This document shows positions 914 to 59,365 of a stretch of DNA of 64,000 bases, piece after piece. The translations under genes and the position numbers were made by a program. The notes below the pieces were generated by a model. It did no database searches. It saw nothing but the letters and a program-made list of their open reading frames with translations, and had not been told where the DNA came from. How positions within the stretch are numbered: position 1 is the first letter of the stretch; each line of letters starts with the position of its first letter. Source of the stretch: a bacterium (GTDB lineage Bacteria > SAR324 > NAC60-12); assembly GCA_965205865.1 (NCBI GenBank), contig CBDBHR010000030.1, positions 1,191,866 to 1,255,865 of the forward strand. Reading direction: 5' to 3'.

Positions 914-2097
914 CTAGTGTATTGCCTGTTTAATACATTGTATTATTGGTCATTTGGTAGACAGGTTTGAGTTTGTTGATAATTTCTTCGGCAGTTTTAG
1001 TCCAGACATAGGGTTTTGGGTTGCGATTGTGTGTCTCGATGTAACTATGGATGGCTTCGGTCAACTCGAGCACGCTTTTGAAGGCGCCTCGTCGAATCCG
1101 TTCTGCAGTGATCTTGCCAAAAAAGCGTTCCACCATGTTCAGCCATGAGGAGGAAGTAGGAATGAAATGCGGGTGAAATCGCGGGTGTTTTTTGAGCCAT
1201 TCTTTCACCTTAAGATGTTTGTGGGTGGCGTAATTGTCCAGGATCAAGTGTACCTGCAGTTGCTTCGAGGTAGTCTTGTCAATAAGACGCAGGAAGCGCA
1301 GATACTCTTGGTGTCGGTGCCGTTTTTCACAGCGAGCGAGCACTTCCCCTGTCTGCGTATTCAAAGCAGTAAACAGACAGCAGGTGCCATGACGGATATA
1401 ATCATGAGTTCTGGTGCCATTGCGCCCTGGTTTCAGTGGCAGACCTGGCTGGGTGCGATCGAGTGCCTGGATTTGTGATTTCTCATCGACGCTCAAGACC
1501 AGCGCTTTCTCAGGAGGATTCATGTACAAACCGATGACATCTTTCAGTTTCGCAGTGAAATGCTTATCATGCGACAACTTAAATGTTTTTTCCAGATGAG
1601 GCTTGAGGCGATGGGCCTTCCATACTTTACCGACGGTTGTCTTGCCTACGCCAACTGCCTTGGCCATCGATCGCGTGCTCCAATGGGTACGGTCCTCAGG
1701 CTTCTCTTCAATGGTTTTCTTCACAATCTCCTCGATTTTATCCGCTCCATAAATGCGTGTCCTGCCAGGCCGCGGATCATCATTGAGACCTGTTATTCCT
1801 TTTTCAACAAAGCGCCGTCGCCACTTTCCAACGGCATTACCGCTGGTTCCAAGCGTTTTGGCAATTTCTTGATTCTTAAGGCCATCAGCAGCCAACAGGA
1901 TGATGCGCGCACGACGAGTGTCTCGCATCGCTCCGGTATGACGGCGTGCGGTTTTGCCCAATTCATCCCGTTCTTCCCGGGTCAGTTTTATACTTGGTGC
2001 TTTTCTCATGCTGTCTCCATATATGCAAAAAAAAGGACAGCTCGTAGTATAGCAAACCAAGGATTTTTTTACACATTAATAAAAGAGCGACACACTA
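914..2097 (-). mobile_element. IS630-family insertion sequence, full length, TA-flanked
   Basis: Single transposase ORF with HTH + DDE. Ends are ctagtgtattgcctgtttaatac... / ...gagcgacacactag (imperfect TIR, terminal CTAGTGT/ACACTAG). Both ends are shared with a second, deleted copy at 17197-17658. TA at both junctions, as expected for IS630/Tc1. Confidence 0.8.
930..2009 (-). CDS. IS630-family transposase (HTH + DDE)
   Basis: MRKAPSIKLTREERDELGK...LLAADGLKNQEIAKTLG (HTH) ... LVLSVDEKSQIQAL ... HLILDNYATHKH ... WLNMVERFFG. This is the classic IS630/Tc1 transposase architecture. Start taken at MRK rather than the upstream extension. Confidence 0.85.
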   Translation of the reverse strand: MRKAPSIKLTREERDELGKTARRHTGAMRDTRRARIILLAADGLKNQEIAKTLGTSGNAVGKWRRRFVEKGITGLNDDPRPGRTRIYGADKIEEIVKKTIEEKPEDRTHWSTRSMAKAVGVGKTTVGKVWKAHRLKPHLEKTFKLSHDKHFTAKLKDVIGLYMNPPEKALVLSVDEKSQIQALDRTQPGLPLKPGRNGTRTHDYIRHGTCCLFTALNTQTGEVLARCEKRHRHQEYLRFLRLIDKTTSKQLQVHLILDNYATHKHLKVKEWLKKHPRFHPHFIPTSSSWLNMVERFFGKITAERIRRGAFKSVLELTEAIHSYIETHNRNPKPYVWTKTAEEIINKLKPVYQMTNNTMY

Positions 2098-2122
2098 GCA
2101 TAGGGTGCTGCTCACCTTGAGG

Positions 2123-11033: not shown

Positions 11034-12503
11034 ATGATGCGAACAATCGCAATCCATAGAAAAGGTAGATTGGGAGTTCGGCCCCGAAGAAACAATCGGT
11101 TCGTAGGTTTTTTCGGAGTGGCTCTTGTACTGGCAGGGTGCGTTAATGTACAGCCTGAAGGTTCCCACAGGCCGCAGAGGGAGTGGGAAATGCCGCAAGT
11201 TCCCATCACGGTGGAGTCGAAACCTCTCAGGGTGGATACTCGTCCCTGCACCGGTTCATTTATTCCTCGTTATTTGTCTCATGACACCCTCGCAACTTCC
11301 GGCCTGTATGGCTATGTAAAAAGCATCACCCGTGGAATGTCCGGTCGCATTGGATTTTATCTGAGCAATGGGGCAGGTGTGGCATTGGCAGACCTGGACA
11401 ACGATGGTTTCATCGATATAGTCTTACCGGGGTTGCATGCGCCGACCAGCATTTACTGGAACCTGGGGGGGATGAAATTTCGATACGAGCAGCTGGACGC
11501 AAAATTCGCACGGGCGGTCAACGTGGTCGATGTGGATGGCGATGGTTTGCCAGACTTGGTATTCACTCATGTGGCAGGCCCGCCCTCGTTGTGGCGTGCT
11601 GGTGCCGGAGCATCAGGACCGGCATATACGCGTCTTTCAGATGATGAATTCCGCGGCGCCTTCAATCTCTATGCGATCGCTTGGGCGGATTTGGATGAGG
11701 ATGGAGATCTCGATATGGTAGGGGCTTCCTATGATTCGGAACTCAATCAACAAGGTCGCGGTTCAGGTGGGGTGTTCCTCTACATGAATGACGGTGGTGT
11801 TCTCACGCCTTTCCGTCTTTCCACCAATGCCACTGCCCTTGCTCTGATCCTCACTGATCTCAATGGGGATAGACGTCGCGACATCCTGGTAGGCAACGAC
11901 TTCCATCCGGCTGATGAAGTGCTTTTCAACACGCCCGAAGGCTGGATCAATGCGACTCCCTTCACCAGCACCACCACCAATACGATGAGCTTTGCGGAAG
12001 GAGACATCGATAACGATGGGATCCCGGAACTGCTGGCTACCGATATGAAGCCCTACCGTCAGGATGAAGCCATTGCGCATGCTTGGGCTCCGATGCTGGA
12101 AAACGAGCAAGGTTTGGAACCGGGGGACGGGGTGCAAATCGTGGCCAATGTTCTACAATCTCGTGAGCAGGGAGGCTTGGAATTTGTGGATCGTGCTGAA
12201 GAAGTCGGCGTGGACGCCACCGGTTGGAGTTGGTCGGCCCAATTTGGAGATCTGGACAACGATGGATTCCTCGACCTCTATGTCGTCAATGGCATGATTG
12301 CCATCCAACTTTTTGAGCATTTACCCGGTGACGAGTTGGTAGAAGAGAACCAAGCCCTGCGCAACGACGGAACCGGTCATTTCGTACCAGCTCTAGTTAA
12401 ATATCATTTAAAAAAGATTCCCGGAGAGGATCGATCGTTTTCAAGTCCTCCCACGATATTGTTCAATCGATCGGGAACCCTCTCGTTCATTAAAACAACT
12501 TAG
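11034..12503 (+). CDS. FG-GAP/VCBS-repeat lipoprotein (ASPIC/UnbV-like)
   Basis: LAGC lipobox. Six or more DxDGDGxxD-type repeats (DLDNDGFIDIV, VDVDGDGLPDLV, DLDEDGDLDMV, DIDNDGIPELL, DLDNDGFLDLYV). The last ~30 codons are supplied by a dispersed repeat element (from 12411). Confidence 0.7.
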   Translation: MMRTIAIHRKGRLGVRPRRNNRFVGFFGVALVLAGCVNVQPEGSHRPQREWEMPQVPITVESKPLRVDTRPCTGSFIPRYLSHDTLATSGLYGYVKSITRGMSGRIGFYLSNGAGVALADLDNDGFIDIVLPGLHAPTSIYWNLGGMKFRYEQLDAKFARAVNVVDVDGDGLPDLVFTHVAGPPSLWRAGAGASGPAYTRLSDDEFRGAFNLYAIAWADLDEDGDLDMVGASYDSELNQQGRGSGGVFLYMNDGGVLTPFRLSTNATALALILTDLNGDRRRDILVGNDFHPADEVLFNTPEGWINATPFTSTTTNTMSFAEGDIDNDGIPELLATDMKPYRQDEAIAHAWAPMLENEQGLEPGDGVQIVANVLQSREQGGLEFVDRAEEVGVDATGWSWSAQFGDLDNDGFLDLYVVNGMIAIQLFEHLPGDELVEENQALRNDGTGHFVPALVKYHLKKIPGEDRSFSSPPTILFNRSGTLSFIKTT

Positions 12504-12900
12504 CAAAGGCATCATTCTATTACACAAAAACCCAATGTCAACCCCCCAAGGCAAAATAAATGCGGGATTCGCAAAAAAAATAAAAAATCAATAAATCTGC
12601 TCAAATCCGGGGACAGTCAGAAGCCGTTCAGTTCAATAACGTTGAAAAAAGATTCCCGAGGAGTATCCATCACTTCACTTCCTCCCGCACTTATTTTGAA
12701 TCGAACGGGCGGGAACCCTCCCAAGATTTTGTTCAATCGATCAAGCGGGAACCCTTTTCTTCCCTAAAACAACAAGGCATGATTTTAGTACAACAACTAA
12801 CAACGCAGCTTCAAGCCCCCAAAAAAAAAATAAGCGGAGTCCGCGAAAAAAATAAAAAAACCATGAAGGGATCGATTGTTTTTTTAAGTTAGTTGGTCAA
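12411..12900. repeat. Dispersed repeat family, two tandem ~230-270-bp units; an inverted copy set lies at 28863-29110
   Basis: Shared blocks: aaaaagattcccgg..., ttgttcaatcgatc..gggaaccct, ctaaaacaac...atgattttagta, and caaaaaaaataaaaaa. Reverse-complement matches occur at 28863-29110. Confidence 0.7.
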
Positions 12901-13129
12901 GGTTTGGAAGACAACTATGAAGAGAGCGGGGGTACGTTGACCTGAGGAATGAACAGTTGCTTTCATTGGAATTGAAGAGGTGATTCGAGAGGGAGTCTAT
13001 GAGATTCAGATCAAGTTCTCAAATGGATTTCTCTTGAAGAGATTCAGAGATATCTTGAAAACAAAAAAAGACTGAAACGAACCATTTTGAAGTTTCCGGA
13101 GACACTCAGAAAGGATTGGAGCGAGAAAC

Positions 13130-14030
13130 TAGGTAAGCTCATAATTTTCCCTTCCGTTCAAAACTTATCCTTCGCAATAAGCTTACCGGCGAGAACTGTT
13201 CCCATGCGCCACGCAGATAAGGCTTCGAGTCCTCCGGCAATGACTTGCCAGGCTTCTACGCTCTTTGCACTTCGATGGCGCATGCTTCTCCGTTGATATC
13301 CCATTCGGCTCCACGTCGACCGGACATCAGGTGACCACTGGGAATAGCTTCCAGGTGATTGGCAAGAGTTTCCGTCTTGATAAACTGATCAAATCGCGTG
13401 ACTGCTGTTTGCACGAATTGTGAAGTTTGATAACGAACATGAATACGCGCCATCACGTCGAACGCCTGCTCTTTTCTCATATTCTGTACTTTATTGACGA
13501 ATTCCCGGGCAAATCCTTCCTGTTGCAAGTCAATTGTCAGTTCCGTATTCAGGGCAACGGTCACATTGTTTTCCGTCTGCGCCAGTAAGCCTTCTTTTTC
13601 ATGACGTTGCAAAAGCACGTCTTCGGGTGCTAAGATAATAGTTTCTCCATCCAACTCCAATGTCGTCCGTTTGCCATCCCGCAGCCGAAAAATAGCGGAG
13701 GAATCGAGCTCCACAATGGTTCGGGCGACTTGTTTCATGCGAACTCCGAGCTTCGGTCCGAGCACACTGTAATTGGCCTTGGCGCTGTAAGTCACTAAAT
13801 CTTCTTCATTATCAGCCACGACGACTTTCTTGATATTCAACTCTTCCGTGATCAATTCTTCCATGTCGTTCAAAATCGCTACGGCTTCCGGGTCACGGGT
13901 CACCAGAAAAATGCTGGCAAGGGGTTGTCGTATTTTCAATTGATGCTTGTTACGCAAGGCGCGTCCCATGCTGACTGCCGAGAGCACCAATTCCATTTTC
14001 TTTTCGATTGCAGGGTCCCGATATTGGGGT
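13130..14030 (-). pseudogene. ileS: Duplicated 3' fragment of ileS (last ~246 codons plus 3' UTR), detached from the gene
   Basis: Nucleotide sequence 13130-14023 is near-identical to 17660-18550. ORF 13256..13996 equals the C-terminus of the 1044-aa IleRS. Homology stops abruptly at about 14023. Confidence 0.85.
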
Positions 14031-14037
14031 CAGGCTG

Positions 14038-15642
14038 TGCGCCAGGAAAGCTGGCAAGAAATAGAGAGTGAAAGTCTCTTACTCGGTAAGGCAGTAACGA
14101 CCCGCCGAGTCCCCGAGTCATGAGTGGTTATTCGCAAGGATAGGCGCTAAGCGTTGACAGGGGAGAACATAGGCTCGGTATTGAGCTCCGAAATCATAGT
14201 CTCAGGCGCTGACCTTGTGGTCTGGTGGGGAAGGCAATATCAACCGAAGGCGTTAGCGTGAGTCTCGGCTGAGCCTGGCGGAGTCAAAGACCCGGTGCAT
14301 GTGTGGAAGTTTCTTGATCGGAACCTGGGAGATCCTGAAGACGACTGTCAACATTCTATTGGTAGTCGGATCGGGAAAATTAATAAATAACCCCGATATC
14401 TACGTCTTCAGGAAGTCGGACAAGTTCGTAGTAGCGTGAGCAGCCGACAAGGCTGTGGATTTTGGAGAGTGAAAGTCTCTCTGTCGTCAGTTTCCCATTC
14501 GGGCGACTAGCATATCCGGTGCGCTTAGCAGGTAACTGCTTTGCGTTCTGCCCGGAAGTAAAAGTCACCGTCTGCTTTGGACGAGAGTCCATAGTGGGAG
14601 CCAACAGGGTGGCGAGCAAACCTGGAGGCCTGAACATTAGTGAATGATTGCAGCTCCGAAAGAGACTTCCGTCGTGAATTGGCTTGACGGTGTGTTGCCC
14701 AACCGCCGACCCGCTCGCTACTCGGGGAAGGCCGAAGTTCCAAGGGAAGTAATGGGAACAGGCACCTTGGAGGGAGCCGGAGTATGGATCCAAGCATCCA
14801 GGGAAAGATCCACAGAGATAACGTCGGGAAGGGCCAACTTCCAGCAGGGACTCGCAATAACCTGCAAGGACCTACCGTATAGGGTAACACCGAAATCGGC
14901 AGGAGGATTTTGGTCTGGCGCATGAGTCCGTATGAGCGATGAAGACCGGGTAACGCTGGTCGAGGGGATGCTTGGACATCTCCCTTTTGGAGGTAACACC
15001 TCTAAAAGGCAAAGGGGCTCTCGGTAAATGGCGGGCATTTCATGAACCACTGCCGAACTTGTGTCGGTCAAGAGTGTCACCACAAAGAATGTCGAGCTGG
15101 AGATCAAATCACTCACTCCAGGGGTGAATGCAGGCGAGTGCTTAAGCTTCGGATTGGGTGGGAAGGGTTTCTGGGGAAACGCTGTTGCTGCCAACCGGAC
15201 TCGGGAAATCCGACCGTCCGGGATGAGAGGGGGGCTTGCGGAAACGTGATGCAGGGTCTGACGCCCTTTTGCCACGAAACCGGAAACGGGGGATACATTG
15301 GAAGTCGTTGACCTAAACATGCGCGCGCCGTATTTCTACCCGGCATGAAGCGGCGAACAATGAGATCATTTGCAGAGAGTAACAATGCAAAGGAAATCAA
15401 CGGAGCCTGTGGAGCAAAGGGACTTGGCTGAGAGGAATTCTGCTTGCCCTCCTGTGTTCGGAACTCAGAGGCCGTAAAATCAGAGAGCGGTTTAAGCAGG
15501 GTGCGCCAAACGGCAACGTTTGAGCGTCTGACTCGAAGCAGGAGCCGGATGCGTTAGCAGCGCACGTCCGGATCTGTACCGGAGGAATGACGAAAGGTGG
15601 CTGGAAACCACTATAAGTCAGTTCTTTACGGTGACTGCATAC
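14038..15642 (+). ncRNA. Group II intron RNA, apparently ORF-less (no intron-encoded RT/maturase); 3' boundary approximate
   Basis: Starts GUGCG at 14038, followed by the GCCAG-GAAA-CUGGC hairpin (DI). The D3-like block ...gggtaacgc...ggcaaagggg resembles Ll.LtrB-type IIA introns. Domain V candidate at 15542-15575: GAGCCGGAUGCG-loop-CGCACGUCCGGAUC with the AGC triad. The D6-like region follows. No ORF with RT motifs exists on either strand. Confidence 0.55.
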
Positions 15643-17196: not shown

Positions 17197-17658
17197 CTAG
17201 TGTATTGCCTGTTTAATACATTTGTATTATTGGTCATTTGGTAGACAGGTTTGAGTTTGTTGATAATTTCTTCGGCAGTTTTAGTCCAAACATATGGTTT
17301 TGGGTTGCGATTGTGCGCTTCGATGTAACTATGGATGGCTTCGGTCAACTCGAGCACGCTTTTGAAGGCGCCTCGCCGTCGCCACTTTCCAACGGAATTG
17401 CCGCTGGTTCCAAGCGTTTTGGCAATCTCTTGATTCTTAAGGCCATCAGCAGCCAACAGGATGATGCGCGCACGAAGAGCGTCTCGCATCGCTCCGGTCT
17501 GACGGCGTGCGGTTTTGCTCAATTCATCCCGTTCTTCCCGGGTCAGTTTTATACTTGGCGCTTTCCTAATGCTGTCTCCATATATGCAAATAAAAAGACA
17601 GCTCTAGTATAGCAAACCAAGGAATTATTTACACATTAATAAAAGAGCGACACACTAG
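17197..17658 (-). mobile_element. Internally deleted IS630 derivative (MITE-like), ~462 bp
   Basis: Both termini are identical to the 914-2097 element, but about 725 bp of the interior (corresponding to ~1090-1815) is missing. The remnant ORF fuses the transposase N-terminal HTH to its C-terminal tail (17052..17522). Confidence 0.8.
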
Positions 17659-17781
17659 GTAAGCTCATAATTATCCCTTCCGTTCAATACTTATCCTTCG
17701 CAACAAGCTTACCTGCGAGAACTGTTCCCATGCGCCACGCAGATGAGGCTTCGAGTCCTCCGGCAATGACTTGCCAGGCTT

Positions 17782-20700
17782 CTACGCTCTTTGCACTTCG
17801 ATGGCGCATGCTTCTCCGTTGATATCCCATTCGGTTCCACGTCGACCGGACATCAGGTGACCACTGGGAATAGCTTCCAGGTGATTGGCAAGAGTTTCCG
17901 TCTTGATAAACTGATCAAATCGCGTGACTGCTGTTTGCACGGATTGTGAAGTTTGATAACGAACATGAATACGCGCCATCACGTCGAACGCCTGCTCTTT
18001 TCTCATATTCTGTACTTTATTGACGAATTCCCGGGCAAATCCTTCTTGTTGCAAGTCAATTGTCAGTTCCGTATTCAGGGCAACGGTCACATTGTTTTCC
18101 GTCTGCGCCAGTAAGCCTTCTTTTTCATGACGTTGCAAAAGCACGTCTTCGGGTGCTAAGATAATAGTTTCTCCATCCAACTCCAATGTCGTCCGTTTGC
18201 CATCCCGCAGCCGAAAAATAGCGGAGGAATCGAGCTCCGCAATGGTTCGGGCGACTTGTTTCATGCGAACTCCGAGCTTCGGTCCGAGCACCCTGTAATT
18301 GGCCTTGGCGCTGTAAGTCACTAAATCTTCTTCATTGTCAGCCACGACGACTTTCTTGATATTCAACTCTTCCGTGATCAATTCTTCCATGTCGTTCAAA
18401 ATCGCTACGGCTTCCGGGTCACGGGTCACCAGAAAAATGCTGGCAAGGGGTTGTCGTATTTTCAATTGATGCTTGTTACGCAAGGCGCGTCCCATGCTGA
18501 CTGCCGAGAGCACCAATTCCATTTTCTTTTCGATTGCAGGGTCCCGATAGCGTCTCCGGACTTGGGGAAAGTTCGCCAGGTGCACGCTCTCTTCATCTCG
18601 TTCGTTTCGCAGATTGCGGTAAATTCCTTCGGCAATAAAGGGCACAAAGGGTGCGATCACTTTGGAGAGCTCCACTAAGACCTGATAAAGTACCGCATAG
18701 GCTTCCTGCTTGTCTTTTCCCTGTCCCGCCTTCCAAAATCGGCGGCGGCTGCGTCTAATATACCAATTGGTCAACAAGTCGATGAAGCCCACGAAAGGAG
18801 CAACGGATTTATTCAAATCGTAGGCGTCCATGCTGGCTCTCACTGTTTCGATCAGTCCCTGCAATTTGGACAATATCCAGCGATCCAGGGGATTGGAGGG
18901 CATGCTCAGTATTTCCCCGGAGGGCTGCCAGCGGTCGATAGCGGCATAGGTGGTCAGAAAGGCCAGAGCATTCCAAAGGGGCAGCAAAATAGAACGGGTG
19001 GTGTCCACCAGTCCTTTTTCCGAAAACCTGAGATCGTCTCCGCGTACTGCCGGGGAATTGAGCATGTAGAGACGAATGGCATCCGCTCCATATTGGTCCA
19101 ACATGTTGATAGGATCCGGATAGTTTTTCAGTCGTTTGCTCATTTTTTTACCATCTTCAGCCAGGACGAGTCCGTTGACGATGACATTGTGAAAGGCCGG
19201 TTTGTTGTACAATGCCGTCCCGACGACGACCAGAGAATAGAACCAGCCTCTTGTTTGATCCAACCCCTCACAAATAAAATCCGCAGGGAAATTGGCGTCA
19301 AATCTTTCTTTGTTTTCAAAAGGGTAATGTTCCTGACCATAGGGCATAGAGCCGGATTCGAACCAACAATCGAGCACTTCGGGAATCCGCTTATATATTT
19401 TGTCATTTTGAACTATCACCAGATCGTCCACCAAGTGTTTGTGCAAATCTTCCACTTTTTGTCCGCTCGCTTCTTCCAGTTCTGCCACGCTACCGAAACA
19501 GAGACAATCTCCATCCTCACTCTTCCAAATCGGCAATGGGGTTCCCCAGAAACGATTTCGACTGATGGCCCAGTCTCTCGCATTTTCCAACCATTTGCCA
19601 AAACGTCCATCCCGGATGTGCCCCGGTACCCAATGAATGGTCTGATTATTTTGCACCATCTGGTCTTTGATTGCTTCCACCTTGACGAACCAGGTCGAGA
19701 TGGCTTTATAGATGAGGGGGGTGTCCGTTCGCCAGCAGAAGGGATAACTGTGTTCGATGGTTTCGTGTCTGAGAATTTTGTTCTTGTCTTTCAAATAGCG
19801 GATGATCGTTTTGTCGGCCGCCTTGATATTCAACCCTGCCAGGAATCCCATGTAGGATTGAAAATTTCCGTCATCGTCCACCGGGTCGAACAGGGGTAAA
19901 CCTTCCCGCAGGCCAATCCGCAAGTCATCTTCACCAAAGGCTGGCGCTTGGTGGACAATGCCGGTTCCACTTTCATCACTGATATAATCGTCGACCAGCA
20001 CCCGCCATACCCGGCTGCTGTCCACTCGTCCAATGGCAAAGTCAAACGGTGGATGATAAGTTTTGTTCCGCAAATCGCTGCCTTTCAAGGCGTCAAGCAC
20101 TTCATATTCACCGGCTTGCCAATAAGCAGGTATGCGGTTGGTTGCCAGGTAATAGTTTTCTCCACTGGCCTTTTCCCTGATTTTGACGTAATCTATTTCC
20201 GCTCCGACACAGCATGCCAGATTTGCGGGGATGGTCCAGGGAGTGGTGGTCCATCCTAAATAATAAGTGTTTTCCTCATCAGTCGCCTGGCATTTGAAAG
20301 TAATCGAAGGATCCTGCGTCTCCTGATAGTTGAGGTTGGCTTCGAAATTGGAAAGAGGAGTTGAAAGCCGCCAGGAATAAGGCACCACTTTTCTGCCTTC
20401 GTAGATGAGATTCTTCTGCCATAATTGTTTCATCACCCACCAAACAGATTCCATGTAGGAGCGATCCATGGTTTTGTAATCGTTGTCAAAATCTACCCAA
20501 CGGGCCATACGATCCACGGTTTCCCGCCATTCCCTGGTGTATCGTAATACGATTTTGCGACATGCTTCATTGTAATTCCCTATACCAAATTCGATGATAT
20601 CCGGACGCCCTTCTAATTGGAGCGCTTGTTCCACCTCAAACTCGACCGGCAGTCCGTGGCAATCCCAACCAAAACGCCGTTCCACTCGATGGCCTCGCAT

Positions 20701-21411: not shown

Positions 21412-23919
21412 ATGTCGCAAGAAGATCGATATTCCGAGGTAAACACCCCCATCCAAATTCCCATGCTGCCCATGAGAGACATTGTGGTTTTCCCCCGCAT
21501 GACCGCGCCTTTTTTCATCGGGAGAGCCCCCTCCATGGCTGCCTTGGAAAAAGCTCTGGCAACCGATCGCCGGGTTTTTGTAGTAGCGCAGCAGGATCCC
21601 ATGATTGAATCACCCTCTGCGAAAGATTTGTTCCGGATGGGGACCATAGGCCAGATCCTCCAGATCATGCGTCTACACAATGGCACCATCAAAGCCCTGT
21701 TCGAGGCCAAAACTCGCGGCATGCTGATTGAAGCCAGTCTGACAGGTTCTTTTTATTCGGCACTTGTCGAACCCCTCCCGGAAGCCGTGTTTCATACTCC
21801 GGAATTGGTTGCATTGAGCAAAAATGTCCGGCATGAGTTGAAACGCTATCTCAAAGAAGTCAAAAAGCACACTGAACGTATTGAAAAGCTGGCCCTGGAT
21901 AAGGAAGAACCCTGCCACCTGGCCGACCGCATTGCGCCGCTATTGAACATGGATCTGAAGAAAAAACAGGAACTCCTGGAAATTTCAGATGCTCAAAGAC
22001 GACTGGAAATCGTTTACGAGCGGATGCTGGAAGAAAATGAATTGAAAAAAGTGGAGCGCAAACTCAAAGAACGCGTCCAAGGGCAAATAGGCAGAACTCA
22101 AAAGGAATACTATCTCAACGAACAAATCAAAGCTATCCAAAAAGAGCTGGGACAAGGAGAAGACGGAAAAGCGGAAATTGAAGAATACACCAAAAAAGTC
22201 GCAGACACCCCGCTTTCCAAGGAAGCCGGAGAGGTGGCTGTAAAGGAAGTAAAAAAACTGAAAATGATGCAACCGATGTCGGCAGAGGCCAATGTGGTGA
22301 GGAATTATCTGGATTGGTTGCTGGGCATGCCCTGGGGTGAAAAAACCGAAGATCATTTTGAATTAGGAGATGCCGAGAAAGTTCTCGACGTCGAGCATTA
22401 TGGTTTGAGAAAAATAAAAGAGCGGATTATTGAATATTTAGCGGTTGCGCAGAAAGTAGGACAGATGAATGGTCCGATCATTTGTCTGGTGGGGCCTCCG
22501 GGTGTGGGGAAGACCTCTCTTGCCCGCTCAGTCGCCAAAGCGCTTGGCAGAAAATTCGTACGCATGAGTCTGGGAGGGGTGCGGGACGAAGCAGAAATCA
22601 GGGGGCACCGTCGTACTTACATTGGCGCTCTTCCCGGAAAAATCATTCAGTCGGTCCGTAAGGCGAAAAGCACCAACCCTCTGATGCTGCTCGACGAGTT
22701 GGACAAGATGACCTATGGAGTTATGGGCGACCCTGCTGCCGCCTTGTTGGAAGTGTTGGACCGGGAACAAAACCACTCTTTCATGGATCACTATCTGGAG
22801 ATTGAATTCGATTTATCCGATGTCCTTTTCTTTTGTACCGCCAACGTCGACCAAAATATCCCTCTCACTTTGAAAGATCGGATGGAAGTCATCACTTTAT
22901 CCGGATACACCGAATTGGAAAAAGAGCACATCGCCGCACGGCATTTGATTCCCAAACAGATTGAAGAAAACGGATTGAAAAAGGAGCAGATCAGGTTCCA
23001 GCGTAAAGGATTGACAGAAATCATCCAGCGCTACACGCGAGAAGCCGGGGTGCGGGATCTCGAACGCTCCATTTCCAAGGTCTGCCGCAAAGTAGCCCGC
23101 CAGATTGTACAAAAGCATGGGGCTAAAAACCCCTCCCCCGGCCCCTCCCTCAAGGGGAGGGGAGAACTGATCGATAAAACAATTGTGGTGACGGAGAAAC
23201 GAATTCACGATTATCTGGGAGTTCCATGTTATAAACACAAGGAAATCGCAGAGAAAAATGAAATTGGAACCGCGTGCGGACTGGCCTGGACATCGGTAGG
23301 TGGTAAATTGCTCACCAATGAAGTGTGCCTGATGAAGGGAAAAGGCAATCTGAAATTAACGGGGCAATTGGGCGAAGTGATGAAAGAATCCGCAAAGGCC
23401 GCTTTGAGCTATGTGCGCAGCAATGCGAATATGCTCGGAATTTATTCATCGGTCTTTCAAGAAACCGACATCCATATCCATGTTCCGGAAGGTTCCGTTC
23501 CCAAAGATGGTCCATCGGCTGGAATTACCATGACCACCTCCTTGATAAGCGCCTTCACCAGCATTCCTGTGAGAAAGGAGGTTGCCATGACCGGAGAAAT
23601 CACCTTACGGGGAAGAATTTTGCCCATTGGTGGACTGAAAGAGAAATTGTTGGCTGCCAAACGGGGAGGAGTTCAAACCGTCTTGATTCCTGATAAAAAT
23701 GAAAAAGACTTGGTAGAGATTCCGGTTGAGATCAAAAAAGAGTTGACGATTGTCCCTGTCACTTTTGCGGAGGATGCCTTGAAAGTGGCGTTGGAACGTC
23801 TACCAGTTGCCGTGGAAGATCCTCCGAAGGAAGAAGAAAACGCCCGTGAAACTGCAACCAACGTGATTGCGGAGGAATCTTTCACTGAGCATGAAGTCCC
23901 CAGTTTTCCTCACAATTAA
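21412..23919 (+). CDS. lon: ATP-dependent Lon protease (endopeptidase La)
   Basis: N-terminal Lon domain, Walker A GPPGVGKTS, and protease S-K dyad context PKDGPSAGIT...KEK. Contains a 15-aa insertion derived from the palindromic repeat at 23125-23168. Confidence 0.95.
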   Translation: MSQEDRYSEVNTPIQIPMLPMRDIVVFPRMTAPFFIGRAPSMAALEKALATDRRVFVVAQQDPMIESPSAKDLFRMGTIGQILQIMRLHNGTIKALFEAKTRGMLIEASLTGSFYSALVEPLPEAVFHTPELVALSKNVRHELKRYLKEVKKHTERIEKLALDKEEPCHLADRIAPLLNMDLKKKQELLEISDAQRRLEIVYERMLEENELKKVERKLKERVQGQIGRTQKEYYLNEQIKAIQKELGQGEDGKAEIEEYTKKVADTPLSKEAGEVAVKEVKKLKMMQPMSAEANVVRNYLDWLLGMPWGEKTEDHFELGDAEKVLDVEHYGLRKIKERIIEYLAVAQKVGQMNGPIICLVGPPGVGKTSLARSVAKALGRKFVRMSLGGVRDEAEIRGHRRTYIGALPGKIIQSVRKAKSTNPLMLLDELDKMTYGVMGDPAAALLEVLDREQNHSFMDHYLEIEFDLSDVLFFCTANVDQNIPLTLKDRMEVITLSGYTELEKEHIAARHLIPKQIEENGLKKEQIRFQRKGLTEIIQRYTREAGVRDLERSISKVCRKVARQIVQKHGAKNPSPGPSLKGRGELIDKTIVVTEKRIHDYLGVPCYKHKEIAEKNEIGTACGLAWTSVGGKLLTNEVCLMKGKGNLKLTGQLGEVMKESAKAALSYVRSNANMLGIYSSVFQETDIHIHVPEGSVPKDGPSAGITMTTSLISAFTSIPVRKEVAMTGEITLRGRILPIGGLKEKLLAAKRGGVQTVLIPDKNEKDLVEIPVEIKKELTIVPVTFAEDALKVALERLPVAVEDPPKEEENARETATNVIAEESFTEHEVPSFPHN
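23125..23168. repeat. 45-bp GC-rich palindromic repeat, copy 1 (inside the lon CDS, in frame)
   Basis: aaaaacccctcccccggcccctccctcaaggggaggggagaactg, with the cccctccctc/ggggagggg hairpin. Translates as NPSPGPSLKGRGEL within Lon. Confidence 0.75.
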
Positions 23920-23920
23920 G

Positions 23921-23966
23921 AAAAACCCCCTCCCCCGGCCCCTCCCTCAAGGGGAGGGGAGAACTG
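23921..23966. repeat. 45-bp GC-rich palindromic repeat, copy 2 (immediately after the lon stop)
   Basis: Near-identical to copy 1; may also act as the lon terminator hairpin. Confidence 0.75.
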
Positions 23967-25310: not shown

Positions 25311-25356
25311 CACTCCCCCCTCCCCTAACCCCTCCCTCGTGGGGAGGGGGACTCCT
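25311..25356. repeat. 45-bp GC-rich palindromic repeat, copy 3 (divergent variant)
   Basis: cactcccccctcccctaacccctccctcgtggggagggggactcc, lying between the M16 peptidase and hemL genes. Confidence 0.65.
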
Positions 25357-28862: not shown

Positions 28863-29110
28863 TAGTAGTGCTAAAATCATGACTTGTTGTTTCAGGGAAG
28901 AAGAGGGTTCCCGCTCGATCGATTGAACAATGCCGTGGTAGGGCGTGAAAACGATGGATCCTCCCCGGGAATCTTTTTTCAACATTTTTGTATTTTAGGC
29001 TTGATCCTGAGGATCCTAAGTAGTAGTAGTGTTAAAATCATTTCTTGTTGTTTTGGGAAAGAGAGGGCGTGAAAACGAGTCATCCCCCCCGGGAATCTTT
29101 TTTCAACTTT
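28863..29110. repeat. Dispersed repeat family (same family as 12411-12900, opposite orientation), two tandem sub-units
   Basis: tagtagtgctaaaatcatgacttgttgtttcagggaagaagagggttcccgctcgatcgattgaacaa...gggaatcttttttcaac is repeated with variation. Confidence 0.7.
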
Positions 29111-32464: not shown

Positions 32465-32885
32465 GAAGTAGTCCCTGAGGGACGAAAGGAAGTAGCCCAG
32501 CGATTCATCGCTGGGAACAAAAGATAGTCTCCTTCAAAGTCCCGGAGGGACGATACAACAATGAGGTTTCATGTCCCATTCCTACATCAGCAATCATCTT
32601 CATGGTGTCTTTTGCGCAAAAAACCGAGTTGAGATGATGACTCCTGAAATCAAAAAGCGCCTTTTTCCTTATTTGACATCATGAGCGTTATATTTGGGAG
32701 TAACTCGCTGGATCGAAGAAGTGTCGTCCCTCCGGGACTAGCTGAGGAGGAGGGGGGTTCCTTTCCCAGCGATGAATCGCTGGGCTATTCCCTTTCGTCC
32801 CTCTGGGACTAGCTGAGGAGGGGGTTCCTTTCCCAGCGATGAATCGCTGGGCTATTCCCTTTCGTCCCTCCAGGACTGCATTATA
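32465..32885. repeat. Cluster of short hairpin repeats inserted between the two permease genes of cluster 2
   Basis: Hairpin cccagcgattcatcgctggg at 32496, and its reverse complement twice (32766, 32833) inside a tandem ~70-bp unit. Multiple gtccctNNgggac palindromes. Confidence 0.7.
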
Positions 32886-35941: not shown

Positions 35942-36619
35942 TCAGGAAGTTTTTCTATTTCGCGCGATCTTTTTTTCGAGTTCCTGCAGAAAATATTGGC
36001 GCAATCGCTCATCGACTTTTTTTGGAACCAGTTTTGTACCCCCGGCGATTATAGCGCTCAATGTTTTTTCCGGATTTTCTTCCGACACTATTTTTCCCTT
36101 GATCAGTAGCTTTTGGTCCATGGATAGTCCTGTTAACAATTTTTTTAATGCCAGTCCCGTCAGTCTTTCTTGGAGCAATTGTTTGTATTCATTGTATTTG
36201 GCCCGATTCAACTGGTTCACATTAACCGGCGCCTTTTGCCCAATTTTCTTTTGCATGATCGCATTTTTCTTTTTCAAGGACTCGTTTTGATGAGTTAACT
36301 CTTCAATCACATGATTCTTCATGCGGATCAATTCCATCAAAATCTCGTCCGAACGTTCAAGGAGACCCGAACCTTCCCTGACCTCCATCGTGCCTTGTCC
36401 GGTCTCGTACCAATTGGTATTCAATCCGTATTTGATCTTGAGTAACATAACGGTTTGTTTGGAAGGATTGATTTCTCCTCGTTTGATTTTGTAGAGTCCC
36501 TGTACCGAAATTCCGATGTTCTCAGCAACTTTAGAATAAGAAAATCCCTGATCTGATTTTAGATTCTCCAAAAATTCAGAGAACCTTCTTCTATGTAAGG
36601 CATCCCTATTAACACTCAT
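35942..36619 (-). CDS. XRE-type HTH regulator with extended coiled-coil C-terminus (paralog 2)
   Basis: The same HTH block (VAENIGISVQGLYKIKRGEINPSKQTVMLL) plus a ~120-aa K/E-rich tail. Confidence 0.6.
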   Translation of the reverse strand: MSVNRDALHRRRFSEFLENLKSDQGFSYSKVAENIGISVQGLYKIKRGEINPSKQTVMLLKIKYGLNTNWYETGQGTMEVREGSGLLERSDEILMELIRMKNHVIEELTHQNESLKKKNAIMQKKIGQKAPVNVNQLNRAKYNEYKQLLQERLTGLALKKLLTGLSMDQKLLIKGKIVSEENPEKTLSAIIAGGTKLVPKKVDERLRQYFLQELEKKIARNRKTS

Positions 36620-36749
36620 TGTTGAATTCTTTCATTTGAGATTAGCATTCCGGATCCACCCCCGAAATCGCGAATTGGGGCACTGTCCTTGTCATTACAA
36701 CAGACTTCCTTTGGAAAAGTTTTCTCCGGTTTTCAAGATATTATTAAAA

Positions 36750-36985
36750 TAACCTGAGTTCGACATAAATCTTCAATAATATGAGTATCCTAGCGTATAT
36801 GTCATCCTCGCGAAACTTGTCCCCGCGAAAGCGGGGAGCGGGGATCCGGATTTCAGTCTGGCTGCATACCTCCGGATTCCTTCCCTGCGTACGCAGGGAT
36901 CTCGCAGGAATGACAAGGTTTCTCTAAGATATGAAGATTCCATAACATATTGAATTTATTAAATTCTTATCTCGAACTCAGGTTA
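36750..36985. mobile_element. MITE copy A (~236 bp, Tc1/IS630-like, TA-flanked), inverted relative to copies B and C
   Basis: TIR TAACCTGAGTTCGACATAA ... TTATCTCGAACTCAGGTTA. Internal palindromes ccctgcgtacgcaggg and ccccgcgaaagcgggg. TA dinucleotide at both junctions. Confidence 0.8.
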
Positions 36986-37090
36986 AAATAGTCACCATAA
37001 AGCGTCGAATCGAACACTCCGGGAGCAAGTGAGCTGATGAAATTCAAATCATCCCGATTTATTTGCAGATTCTCCGAGTGGGAATGAAGG

Positions 37091-37702
37091 TTAAAGAATA
37101 TGCGAACTTTGTAGTAACGTAATACCGGCGGATTTCATTTCTTCCAGTGCGTTTTTCACGTCCCCTGAATTGAGATCGACTCCGCGCGTGCCGTCAGTGA
37201 TGAGATGAGTTTGATACCCCAAAGCCTGGGCATCCAATGCGGTGAATTTGACACAATAATCTGTCGCCAATCCCACCACATAAACCTCTGTCACACCTTT
37301 CTCTTTCAAATTCGAGTCCAGCCCGGTGGCGCTTTGGTGATCGTTGTCGAAAAATCCACTGTAGCTGTCGACGGTTTTTTTCATGCCTTTTTGGCATACG
37401 CAGGCAATTTTTGCCGTATTCAAACCTGCGATAAACGCTGCTCCTTCCGTGCCCTGCACACAATGCGCCGGCCACAGTATTTGTTCAATACCATGGAGCA
37501 TGATGATTTCCCCGGGTTCTTTGCCATGATGAACCGCAAAACTTTCATGGTCGGCAGGGTGCCAGTCCTGCGTTGCCACAACCAAGTCGAATGCGTTTTG
37601 CAATTGGTTGATCAAGGGAATGATTTGATCCCCTTGCGGAACTGGCAAGGCGCCACTCGGGGTAAAATCGTTTTGCAAGTCAACCAGGATCAATGCCCGC
37701 AT
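37091..37702 (-). CDS. pncA: Nicotinamidase/pyrazinamidase (isochorismatase family)
   Basis: LILVDLQNDF, the catalytic C in TDYCV, and K/D residues; 203 aa. Confidence 0.85.
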   Translation of the reverse strand: MRALILVDLQNDFTPSGALPVPQGDQIIPLINQLQNAFDLVVATQDWHPADHESFAVHHGKEPGEIIMLHGIEQILWPAHCVQGTEGAAFIAGLNTAKIACVCQKGMKKTVDSYSGFFDNDHQSATGLDSNLKEKGVTEVYVVGLATDYCVKFTALDAQALGYQTHLITDGTRGVDLNSGDVKNALEEMKSAGITLLQSSHIL

Positions 37703-37743
37703 AAGCCTTACCGTGCTGGAGGTTATTGGTAATAAACCTGAGT

Positions 37744-37984
37744 TCGAGATAAAAATTTAATAAATTCAATATGTTATGGAATCTTCATATCTTAGAGAAA
37801 CCTTTTCATTCCTGCGAGATCCCTGCGTACGCAGGGAAGGAATCCGGAGGTATGCAGCCAGACTGAAATCCGGATCCCAGCTCCCCGCTTTCGCGAGGAC
37901 AAGTTTCGCGGGGACAAGTTTCGCGAGGATGACATATACACTAGGATACTCATATTATTGAAGATTTATGTCGAACTCAGGTTA
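37744..37984. mobile_element. MITE copy B (~241 bp)
   Basis: Same element as 36750-36985 in the opposite orientation, with a short internal duplication (gacaagtttcgcg x2). Confidence 0.8.
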
Positions 37985-39448
37985 ACAATAGTTTTCCCGG
38001 ATCTGAAGAATCAGTTGAGTTTTCAAATCAAAAAGGGATTTTTCAATCCCCACCGGATATTGATGGGGATTGACGAATCGCGCGATACCGGGATGAAACT
38101 GGCACAATCCTTGCCGTACCTTCTTTCTGATTTGTTGAATGGAAGGCGTAGTATACACTTTTTTTCCTTTTTTGAAAATAGGAATCAACAAGTCTTCGGA
38201 TTGCATACCTGCAGGAATTTTTCGCTGCCGGGTCATGTCTAAGGGATCGACGATGGTGCATCCCTTGCTCAAGTCCGAATGGATGTCAAAAATCACATCT
38301 GCGCTATTTTCCTGCTCTGTGCGATAACGTCGAACCTGTTGAACGCCGGGTGTCGTCACTTTCACGGCTTGTTCAGAGATTTTGACGCGATGTTCCCAGG
38401 ACTGGCCGGGCTCTCGGGTTGCCGCAAGTTTATAGACACCGTCTAATGCCGGCTGGTCATAGGCAGTAGCCAATTTTGTACCGACACCCCACATGTCGAT
38501 TTTTGCATTTTGGTTTTTCAAACTGGCAATGATGAATTCGTCCAATTCATTGCTGACGACAATTTTTGTATCGGAAAACCCATTTTCGTCCAGCATCTTT
38601 CGCGCTTCAATGCTCAGGTACGCCAAATCCCCCGAATCCAGTCGGATTCCCAACAATGGATAGCCCTGAGCTTTCAGCCAACGTCCGGTTGCAATGGCAT
38701 TTTTCACGCCTTGCAGAGAAGAATAGGTATCGACGATGAGTACGCAGTTATTGGGTGAGGATTCAGCATAAGTCTGAAAGGCTTCCGCCTCTCCCGCAAA
38801 GCTCATCACCCAACTATGGGCGATGGTTCCGACAACCGGAATGCCGAAATTTTTCCCTGCCAATACGTTTGAAGTCCCCGCGCACCCTCCGATAAAAGAT
38901 GCCCGGCTGACCGTTAAACCACCGTCCACTCCTTGCGCGCGTCGAAGCCCGAATTCCAGAACAGGATCGCCTTTTGCGGCCAGACAGACGCGCGCGGCTT
39001 TGGTGGCAATCAAAGTCTGAAAGTTGATGATATTGAGTAAAATGGTTTCCAGTATCTGGCACTGCGCAAGGGGCCCCTGCACCCGTATCAGGGGTTCATA
39101 GGGAAAGACCACCGTTCCTTCGGGAATTGCATCGACATCGCATTGGAAACGAAGGGTTTTCAGATAACGCAAAAAATCTCTATGAAAGAGGGCTTTCTCA
39201 TCAATGCCTTGCAAAGAAGCCAGGTAGTCGAGTTCTTCCTGTTCAAAGCAGAAATTGTCCAGTAATTCGATGACGTTTTCTAAACCGCAGACGATGCCGA
39301 ATCCTCCTTTAAAAGGAAGGGTTCTGAAAAATAAATGAAATACGCTTTCTTTGGAAGCAATGCCGCTTTTCCAGTACCCGTAAGCCATGGTGAGTTGATA
39401 GAGATCTGTCAAAAGAATAGAATAACGTGAAATTCCTGGAGCTGTCAT
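37982..39448 (-). CDS. pncB: Nicotinate phosphoribosyltransferase
   Basis: 488 aa; LTDLYQLTMAYGYW N-terminal signature of NAPRTase. Confidence 0.9.
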   Translation of the reverse strand: MTAPGISRYSILLTDLYQLTMAYGYWKSGIASKESVFHLFFRTLPFKGGFGIVCGLENVIELLDNFCFEQEELDYLASLQGIDEKALFHRDFLRYLKTLRFQCDVDAIPEGTVVFPYEPLIRVQGPLAQCQILETILLNIINFQTLIATKAARVCLAAKGDPVLEFGLRRAQGVDGGLTVSRASFIGGCAGTSNVLAGKNFGIPVVGTIAHSWVMSFAGEAEAFQTYAESSPNNCVLIVDTYSSLQGVKNAIATGRWLKAQGYPLLGIRLDSGDLAYLSIEARKMLDENGFSDTKIVVSNELDEFIIASLKNQNAKIDMWGVGTKLATAYDQPALDGVYKLAATREPGQSWEHRVKISEQAVKVTTPGVQQVRRYRTEQENSADVIFDIHSDLSKGCTIVDPLDMTRQRKIPAGMQSEDLLIPIFKKGKKVYTTPSIQQIRKKVRQGLCQFHPGIARFVNPHQYPVGIEKSLFDLKTQLILQIRENYC

Positions 39449-47223: not shown

Positions 47224-48384
47224 ATGAATCATTCTGACAATGTCCATCGACTGCAACTGAAAGACAAGGAAGTGCTTCTCATTGGGACAGCCCACATTTC
47301 TCGAGAAAGTACCAACGAAGTGATGCAGGTGATTGAACACGAACAGCCCAAGACGGTTTGTGTCGAACTGTGCAAGTCTCGATATGAAGCTCTTTCCCGC
47401 AAAGACCACTGGAAAAGCATGGACATATTCAAAGTTATCCGGGAGAAAAAAACTTTTTTACTCCTGGCCAATATCATCCTGGCTTCTTTTCAAAAAAGGC
47501 TGGGGAACAAATTGGGCATTCAACCCGGCCGGGAAATGATCGTAGCCATTGATTCGGCAAAAGCCATTCAGGCAAACATTGTGCTGGCAGATCGAGACGT
47601 ACAAACCACCTTTCTGAAAACCTGGCGCATGCTTCCTTTTCGGGAAAAAGTGAAAGTGCTCATGCAGATGATGATGAGTGTTTTTGTCTCGGAGGAAATC
47701 AGCCGAGACGATATCGAAAAAATGAAGACCCAGGATGTGTTGACAGAAACCATGGAGATCTTCTCCCGTCAATCACCAATGATGAAAAAGGTTCTCATTG
47801 ACGAACGAGATCAATATCTTGCAGAAAAAATCAGGACGGCGCCCGGGGAAAAAATCGTCGCGGTGGTGGGCGCAGGACATGTACCTGGAATAAAAAAAGA
47901 AATAAACCACTCGCACGACTTACCTGTCTTGGAACAGGTACCATCTCCTGCGCGGTGGGGAAATTGGTTGAAATGGGGTATTCCTGCCTTGATCATCTCC
48001 TTGATTGCTTATGGTTTTTTTCTCGCCGATTGGAATGTTGGCATTGAAATGGTAAAACGCTGGTTTTTGATCAATGGGATTTTGTCGGCTCTCGGAGTAG
48101 TACTGGCGGCAGGTCATCCTTTGACCATCCTTTCTGCTTTCATTGCCGCCCCTTTCACGTCTCTGAATCCTACCATCGCAGCAGGTTGGGTTGCCGGGTT
48201 GGTCGAAGCGTTTGTGCGTAAACCACAGGTTCGGGATTTTGAAAACCTCATGGAGGACATCACCCATATCTCCGGATTCTGGAGAAACAAAGTCACCCGT
48301 ATTCTTCTGATTGTTGTTTTTGCGAATGTCGGCAGTATGGTGGGGACATTCATTGGCGGTGGGGCCATCATCGAACTATTGTAA
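47224..48384 (+). CDS. TraB/GumN-family protein with C-terminal TM segments
   Basis: LIGTAHIS...TVCVELC...VVGAGHV motifs of the TraB family. Confidence 0.75.
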   Translation: MNHSDNVHRLQLKDKEVLLIGTAHISRESTNEVMQVIEHEQPKTVCVELCKSRYEALSRKDHWKSMDIFKVIREKKTFLLLANIILASFQKRLGNKLGIQPGREMIVAIDSAKAIQANIVLADRDVQTTFLKTWRMLPFREKVKVLMQMMMSVFVSEEISRDDIEKMKTQDVLTETMEIFSRQSPMMKKVLIDERDQYLAEKIRTAPGEKIVAVVGAGHVPGIKKEINHSHDLPVLEQVPSPARWGNWLKWGIPALIISLIAYGFFLADWNVGIEMVKRWFLINGILSALGVVLAAGHPLTILSAFIAAPFTSLNPTIAAGWVAGLVEAFVRKPQVRDFENLMEDITHISGFWRNKVTRILLIVVFANVGSMVGTFIGGGAIIELL

Positions 48385-48595
48385 CCTGAGTTCGAGATAA
48401 GAATTTAATAAATTCAATATGTTATGGAATTTTCATATCTTAGAGAAACCTTGTCATTCCTGCGAGATCCCTGCGTACGCAGGGAAGGAATCCAGAGGTA
48501 TGCGGCCAGACTGAAATCTGGATCCCCGCTTTCGCGAGGATGACATATACACTAGGATACTCATATTATTGAAGATTTATGTCGAACTCAGGTTA
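48383..48595. mobile_element. MITE copy C (~213 bp)
   Basis: TAACCTGAGTTCGAGATAA...TTATGTCGAACTCAGGTTA with TA on each side. Same internal palindromes as copies A and B. Confidence 0.8.
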
Positions 48596-48620
48596 TTGTG
48601 AGAATCTCGGGAGAACACGG

Positions 48621-59055: not shown

Positions 59056-59123
59056 CCAGTTCCCAGTTCCCAGTTCCCAGTTCCCAGTTCCCAGTTCCCA
59101 GTTCCCAGTTCCCAGTTCCCAGT
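59056..59123. repeat. Microsatellite (CCAGTTCC)x8.5
   Basis: Perfect 8-bp tandem repeat read directly from the sequence; degenerate gttccc copies continue to about 59230. Confidence 0.9.
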
Positions 59124-59365
59124 AATAAGTTCCGAGCACCAAGCTCCCAATCACAAGTTCTACCTCCTTATATTATCTCGACTTCAGGGAGAGATCCCTA
59201 AGATTCCTCGTTCCCAATTCCCCGTTCCGGGAACGGAACGGCAATGGGGAATTTGGAAAATCATCGACGCCTGAGTGCGTCGGTTTATGGTTCATTGCCC
59301 AATCCTGGAGCCAATGAATCGGTTTTTTGATCACTTGAAAATGAAGGAGACCCAATGTGTAGAGC

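Follow-up and report, generated by a model that had tools for sequence, protein, structure and literature searches.

Short inverted-repeat elements on both sides of pncA in a SAR324 bacterium are probably IS982-type MITEs, and pncA is not their cargo

How did a pncA-like gene come to stand between two inverted copies of a short repeat, a third copy of which lies elsewhere in the same 64-kb stretch of DNA (hereafter the window)? The question has two parts, namely to which transposon family the repeats belong and whether the pair has carried the gene. The first-pass annotation had read the repeats as Tc1/IS630-like MITEs with a TA target duplication, the pair around pncA as a composite transposon, and their mobility as the work of a second, unseen IS630-family partner. 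Here, these readings are compared with empty insertion sites in related strains and with elements in other genomes that have the same ends.

The repeat is a small non-coding mobile element with three copies in the window, A, B and C, of 210–247 bp, see Table 1. When the terminal TA is included, the lengths are 236, 251 and 214 bp, respectively. The copies are about 95% identical to each other, with a mean column identity of 90% in the alignment of all three, and A is inverted compared to B and C. All have the terminal inverted repeat ACCTGAGTTCGA(G/C)ATAA in common. A search of the window with the 19-mer TAACCTGAGTTCGASATAA, allowing at most one mismatch, gives six matches that form three inverted pairs (36750/36985, 37734/37984 and 48382/48595), while only 0.01 matches are expected in shuffled sequence. 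Together with the alignment of the three copies, this clearly shows that the repeat family is real. The three elements reported earlier are therefore retained, with the start of copy B corrected from 37744 to 37734 (37736 if counted from the ACCTG end). The terminal repeat has a core of 19 nt with at most one mismatch, and continues as an imperfect extension to 38–39 nt with 77–79% complementarity.

The copies differ in length mostly in whether a 15-nt tandem unit, TTTCGCGRGGACAAG, is present once, twice or three times. The interior contains GC-rich hairpins, in agreement with the internal palindromes described before; as single-stranded DNA, copy B folds with -45 kcal/mol (z = -5.4 compared to shuffles). 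The right arms of B and C (37919–37984 and 48530–48595) are 100% identical. Only chance ORF starts are present in the copies. The region 36700–38050 has no match to Rfam families at E <= 1, and no further copies or degenerate ends were found in the window or in seven related metagenome contigs (L114–L120). The idea that the GC-rich core is an independent nested element was rejected, as the internal GTCATTCCTGCGAG module never occurs independently of the repeat. In size, absence of a transposase gene, terminal inverted repeats, target duplication and dispersed copies, as well as in insertion polymorphism between strains, the element is a MITE, as had been proposed.

Diverged copies of the family exist in the MAG OZ242383.1 (L001 and L067). 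A metagenome scan with the left arm, AACCTGAGTTCGAGATAANNNTTTAANNAATTCAATATG, gave 0 matches. The corresponding scan with the right arm, TTGAAGANTWAYGTCGAACTC, gave four, of which three are unrelated chance matches and one (L130) is at most a related terminal repeat. By these arm scans, the family is not represented in the scanned metagenome collection.

Table 1. Coordinates of the repeats, their target duplications and the neighbouring features in the window.
Feature	Position	Strand	Remarks
MITE copy A	36752..36983	-	232 bp, ACCTG...CAGGT; between the pncA 3' end and the HTH_3 gene start
MITE copy B	37736..37982	+	247 bp; sits in the last pncB codons and parts pncB from pncA
MITE copy C	48384..48593	+	210 bp; at the stop codon of TraB/GumN, in the 19-nt spacer that precedes the NT5C-like gene
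A left target duplication TAAAATA	36745..36751	.	7 bp; empty site in L114–L118
A right target duplication TAAAATA	36984..36990	.	perfect copy of the left one
B left target duplication TAATAA	37730..37735	.	6 bp; read from the empty site
B right target duplication TAACAA	37983..37988	.	one substitution compared to the left TAATAA
C left target duplication TATTGTA	48377..48383	.	6/7 match with the right copy
C right target duplication TATTGTG	48594..48600	.	6/7 match with the left copy
HTH_3 gene	35942–36619	-	downstream of pncA
pncA-like isochorismatase-family gene	37091..37702	-	PF00857; bracketed by A and B
pncB, nicotinate phosphoribosyltransferase	37982..39448	-	stop codon straddles the junction with copy B
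TraB/GumN gene	47224–48384	+	upstream neighbour of copy C; NT5C-like gene on the other side
Sigma-70-like site in the right arm of B, outward	37929..37958	+	ATGACA-18-TATTAT, 10/12; candidate from consensus scan only
Identical promoter-like site in A	36805–36776	-	candidate from consensus scan
Identical promoter-like site in C	48540–48569	+	candidate, from the 100% identity of the B and C right arms
Resident IS630-family element	915–2098		intact; transposase ORF 930–2060, NF033545, 281 bits; CTAG target

Insertion-free strains or relatives were found for all three sites, and they reveal what was duplicated. In L114–L118, the unoccupied site A is ATTAT-TAAAATA-GTCACC, while in the window TAAAATA is found on both sides of ACCTG...CAGGT. 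The unoccupied site B is TTGG-TAATAA-TGG, and the occupied one has TAATAA to the left and TAACAA to the right, i.e., a 6-bp duplication where the right copy has acquired one later substitution. For site C, the empty relatives L122, L123 and L124 fit a 6–7-bp duplication, TATTGT(A/G). A duplication of TA alone, as first proposed, is refuted by the 7 bp at A and the 6 bp at B. Under such a model, the empty sites should have 5 nt more at A and 4 nt more at B than is found in eight contigs. A flanking TA was also said to be there each time; it adjoins five of the six ends, but the left end of B is preceded by AA. What the first-pass annotation saw as TA is the outermost part of a longer TA...TA target, which an IS982-type enzyme would have duplicated.

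Direct repeats also flank elements of other genomes that have these ends. Among 36 paired elements (three in the window, the rest among the matches listed), 20 are flanked by a direct repeat of 5 bp or more, while 2000 trials with shuffled pairings gave 2.0 such elements on average and never more than 8. In these 20, the repeats are 5–7 bp, with a mode of 5 bp in the other genomes, and over the paired elements the target consensus is T-A-N-T-A. The duplication length is variable: 6 and 7 bp in the window and mostly 5 bp elsewhere. The exact boundary is ambiguous, as the T/A beside the ends is near-invariant and can be assigned either to the element or to the target; if it is drawn one base outward on each side, every duplication becomes 2 shorter, and the TA model is still not rescued.

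The family of the transposon can be addressed from the ends. In the species-representative genome collection, more than 113 blocks of 8 kb contain the 18-mer AACCTGAGTTCGASATAA among the matches listed. The matches, many of them at contig ends, come from Bacteroidota, Cyanobacteria, Gammaproteobacteria, Acidobacteriota, Saccharibacteria and further phyla. Pairing of the ends yields 33 elements outside the window among the matches listed, 30 of 104–401 bp and three of 1037–1073 bp. The intact full-length elements with these ends (L070 and L075) each encode a protein of about 312 aa. The L070 protein scores 267.8 bits against NF033520, "IS982 family transposase" (cut-off 130), and 241 bits against PF13612, and the L075 protein is 89% identical to it. 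The remaining full-length elements contain disrupted or degenerate IS982-like genes.

A curated element with such an end was reached by tblastn of plasmids, namely IS1592 on pCCK13698, which is annotated as IS982-like. Its perfect 20-nt terminal repeat, TAACCTGAGTTCGGGATAAG, is identical to the MITE terminal repeat at 19 of 20 positions. The flanks of IS1592 on this plasmid have TA alone in common and are uninformative on the duplication length. Members of the IS982 family are about 1 kb, have 5'-AC ends with the consensus AC(N)6T(N)5TT, and direct repeats of 2–10 bp, and ISfinder gives 2 bp for IS1592 itself (PMC7335449). The MITE end, ACCTGAGTTCGAGATAA, has AC at positions 1–2 and T at positions 9 and 15; at position 16 it has A, where the consensus has T. 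The duplications in the window are inside the family range. Because the ends are shared with IS1592 and with full-length elements that encode NF033520 transposases, the MITEs can, by sequence comparison, be assigned to the IS982 type and not to the IS630/Tc1 type.

MITEs of the IS630 family (Correia/RUP-type) are short, have terminal inverted repeats, are preferentially intergenic and have TA beside their ends, and a 2-bp TA duplication defines them. It is understandable that a Tc1/IS630-type MITE, duplicating TA and mobilised by a second transposase of that family, was proposed: TA adjoins nearly all ends, an IS630-family element is resident in the window, and the 2-bp repeat that ISfinder gives for IS1592 makes a TA-only reading easy. 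However, besides the longer duplications at the empty sites and the AA at the left end of B, the search for an IS630/Tc1 transposase with matching terminal repeats leads elsewhere, as the intact elements with these ends encode IS982-type transposases and the other full-length ones have disrupted or degenerate IS982-like genes. The resident IS630 has ends (CTAGTGTATTGCC... and ...GACACACTAG, i.e., CTAGTGT.../...ACACTAG) that are unrelated to those of the MITEs, as had been noted from the start. We consider the Tc1/IS630 model extremely improbable; flanking TA and terminal inverted repeats do not by themselves place a repeat in that group. A quite different account would be a structured repeat maintained by the host (REP/BIME-like, an sRNA or a regulatory module) and spread by recombination. 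The GC-rich core with its strong hairpins and the promoter-like site in the right arm are what such a repeat could have, and a hairpin variant that occurs in all window copies but not in the copy C of a related strain (see below) suggests homogenisation. It is nevertheless quite improbable, given the precise insertions with terminal repeats and target duplications at three unrelated sites, the ends in common with bona fide transposase-encoding IS elements, and the lack of an Rfam match at the threshold used.

The remaining alternative concerns pncA, and holds that A and B make up a composite transposon by which the gene arrived here or is moved as a unit. The geometry is as first described, with two inverted copies about 750 bp apart around a single gene, and MITE pairs with cargo are known, such as those of 439 bp that flank class 1 integrons in Acinetobacter (PMC9771954). 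However, the relatives show the gene in place without the MITEs. An exact-protein look-up of the window PncA gave seven metagenome contigs (L114–L120), all without A and B. The pair pncB-pncA is found MITE-free at the same locus, with a 20-nt spacer, in eight contigs whose PncA is 100% identical. Six of the seven look-up contigs (L114–L119) reach past pncA, and there pncB is upstream and the HTH_3 gene downstream; pncB-pncA is also MITE-free in L121 and L123. The protein-position index holds no second genomic context for the window PncA, i.e., every place found for it shows one context. Without copy B, PncB has 490 aa and ends in ...ENHYYQ*, with the pncA start 20 nt downstream; in the window it has 488 aa and ends in ...ENYC*. 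Further, A and B are independent recent insertions, since each has its own duplication (a perfect one of 7 bp for A and one of 6 bp for B), and the sequences that border the pair on the outside, TAAAATA and TAACAA, differ from each other. Thus, the suggestion that pncA is carried by the pair fails. We regard the composite model as very improbable. pncA is native to the locus, and the bracket around it is a coincidence of two insertions into short AT-rich spacers beside a small gene.

The order of the insertions can be read from site C. Exact-protein look-ups of the window TraB, DnaJ (L and M start) and NT5C-like protein gave no match, and site C in relatives was reached via TraB homologues. 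The nearest named ones are from "SAR324 cluster bacterium" MAGs, at 81% identity. L121, with a 99% identical TraB, has copy C at the same site and lacks copy B, and its locus ends before site A. In L122, L123 and L124 (TraB 86% and 83% identical), the TraB-NT5C spacer is 19 nt and contains no MITE. Copy C is older than A and B, because it is shared with the 99%-identical strain. A 20-nt hairpin variant, GATCCCTGCGTACGCAGGGA, is present in all three window copies and missing from the orthologous copy C of L121. This suggests that A and B may have descended from a C-type master of the window lineage, or that the copies were homogenised. The copy C of L121 is itself split by a group II intron of about 1.95 kb, with a reverse-transcriptase ORF (RVT_1+GIIM) and a match to RF00029. 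The intron (11231–13182 in ena:ERZ25072076 ctg239365) lies just before the GTCATTCC hairpin, so that one mobile element is nested in another.

We suggest, with a probability of roughly 0.9, that the MITEs are non-autonomous, deletion-type derivatives of an IS1592-type element of the IS982 family that are mobilised in trans. They would have retained only the terminal repeats of about 19 bp (5'-ACCTGAGTTCGA(G/C)ATAA) and the AT-rich subterminal arms, with a GC-rich hairpin core between them. An IS982-family DDE transposase, encoded elsewhere in the genome or formerly present, would bind both ends. Insertion into AT-rich TA(N)1-3TA sites would then leave 6–7 bp duplicated, and integration would favour TA-rich sites, above all the ends of genes and the short spacers between them. 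In this history, C would have inserted first, at the TraB stop codon, followed by A and B independently on either side of the native pncA. We infer the mobilisation in trans, as tblastn found no IS982-family transposase gene in the 64-kb window or in the fetched same-species loci. The second partner that the first-pass annotation called for is thus needed and lies outside the window, but it would belong to the IS982 family instead of IS630/Tc1. To our knowledge, the transposition mechanism of IS982 has not been worked out biochemically.

Among known systems, IS1592 (from Bibersteinia/Pasteurella trehalosi) shares with the MITEs not only the terminal repeat but also the 5'-AC ends and the T-A flanks. 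However, it is 1027 bp long and encodes a 294-aa transposase (PMC7335449), while the MITEs are far shorter, non-coding and have an unrelated interior, and its listed 2-bp repeat differs from the 6–7 bp read from the empty sites here. The two intact Bacteroidota MAG elements (L070, 2245–3281, and L075, 1722–2761; about 1.04 kb) have the exact 18-mer AACCTGAGTTCGACATAA at their ends, a subterminal ATAAGAAATTTAA that resembles the MITE left arm, and TA-rich flanks (TAATA). They differ in being autonomous, with the 312-aa NF033520 transposase in L070, and in having a 5-bp duplication.

IS982-derived MITEs have already been described, namely MITECca01 and MITECca02 from ISCca4 in Cardinium cOegib. 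Like the window MITE, they are about 240 bp with the inverted repeats of the parental element, have no transposase, are mostly intergenic and are presumed to be mobilised in trans (PMC9769881). In Cardinium there are 169 MITE copies, and the genome also contains 68 copies of the parental IS (PMC9769881). In contrast, the window family has three copies in 64 kb and no parent seen, and it has another interior and another phylum as host; it is a further member of the IS982-derived MITEs, in a different phylum. The 439-bp MITE units of Acinetobacter are similar to A and B in that two MITE copies bracket a gene, but there the unit has one shared target duplication and recurs at different loci (PMC9771954), while A and B have separate duplications and pncA has stayed at its ancestral locus.

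The exact 18-nt end caps the 30 MITE-sized elements found among the matches listed, whose hosts include Bacteroidota, Balneolota, Gammaproteobacteria, Campylobacterota, Acidobacteriota, Saccharibacteria and the SAR324 relative described here. The interiors of the MITE-sized elements inspected differ between lineages. The IS982 review does not mention MITEs (PMC7335449), and MITE-sized derivatives of this terminus therefore seem under-catalogued; their spread is a modest additional point and not surprising. Many MITE-sized elements with this IS982-type terminus are seen in CBDDKY01 (L003, L020, L024, L025, L028, L091 and L111) and at several JBNKJW01 loci. These are single MAGs, one from Gammaproteobacteria and one from Bacteroidales, and the interiors inspected are unlike the window family. 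Their matches are often at contig ends, which is where repeats that interrupt an assembly should be found.

Each copy also has a promoter-like site directed outward from its right arm, see Table 1. It points towards the HTH gene in A and the NT5C-like gene in C, while in B it is antisense into pncB. From the consensus match, a transcriptional effect on these neighbours is possible. Outward or hybrid promoters are known from other IS982-family elements, i.e., IS1187, ISAba4 and ISAba825 (PMC9330008; PMC7335449). It can be speculated, although we find this rather doubtful, that the IS1592-type terminus is a recurrent source of MITEs across phyla and that it has here provided a mobile promoter cassette before an HTH regulator and an NT5C-like nucleotidase. 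If so, the window MITE would act as such a cassette, recently set before two genes.

For annotation, the three intervals are best recorded as probable IS982-type MITE insertions, and pncA not as mobile cargo. The insertions are polymorphic between near-identical environmental strains and mark recent transposition in a poorly known SAR324-related lineage. They also provide a natural test of insertion effects on two tightly spaced gene pairs, pncB-pncA and traB-NT5C. Overall, the element is well resolved and of an ordinary kind.

The window contains other repeats and mobile elements. In addition to the intact IS630-family element, an internally deleted IS630 copy of about 460 bp is found at 17198–17657; it is 95–96% identical, retains both ends and is a nascent IS630-type MITE. 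The 3' region of ileS occurs twice (13133–13996 and 17655–17944+, about 97% identity), and the ORF at 13256–13996 contains only the C-terminal DUF5915 domain of IleS. As the duplication starts exactly at the CTAG abutting the deleted IS630 copy, an IS630-associated rearrangement is suggested. A match to group II intron D1-D4 (RF02005, 168 bits) is located at 14071–14293 (+).

Three copies of the Acido-Lenti-1 RNA motif (RF01687, 51–54 bits; two on + and one on -) lie within one intergenic region, 32470–32877, between genes of an operon of the peptide-ABC type, a paralogue of which lies at about 59.9–63.4 kb (74–89% identity). The heptamer CCAGTTC is repeated in tandem, in about 10 copies, at 59056–59125. 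Gene ends at 23125–23169, 23922–23966 and 25312–25356 carry a palindromic, G/C-rich repeat of 45 nt (…CCCCTCCCC…GGGGAGGGG…), which looks like a hairpin family of REP or terminator type. Finally, a dispersed inverted repeat family, with segments of 37–79 nt and 72–89% complementarity, is present at 12407–12794 and 28865–29106.
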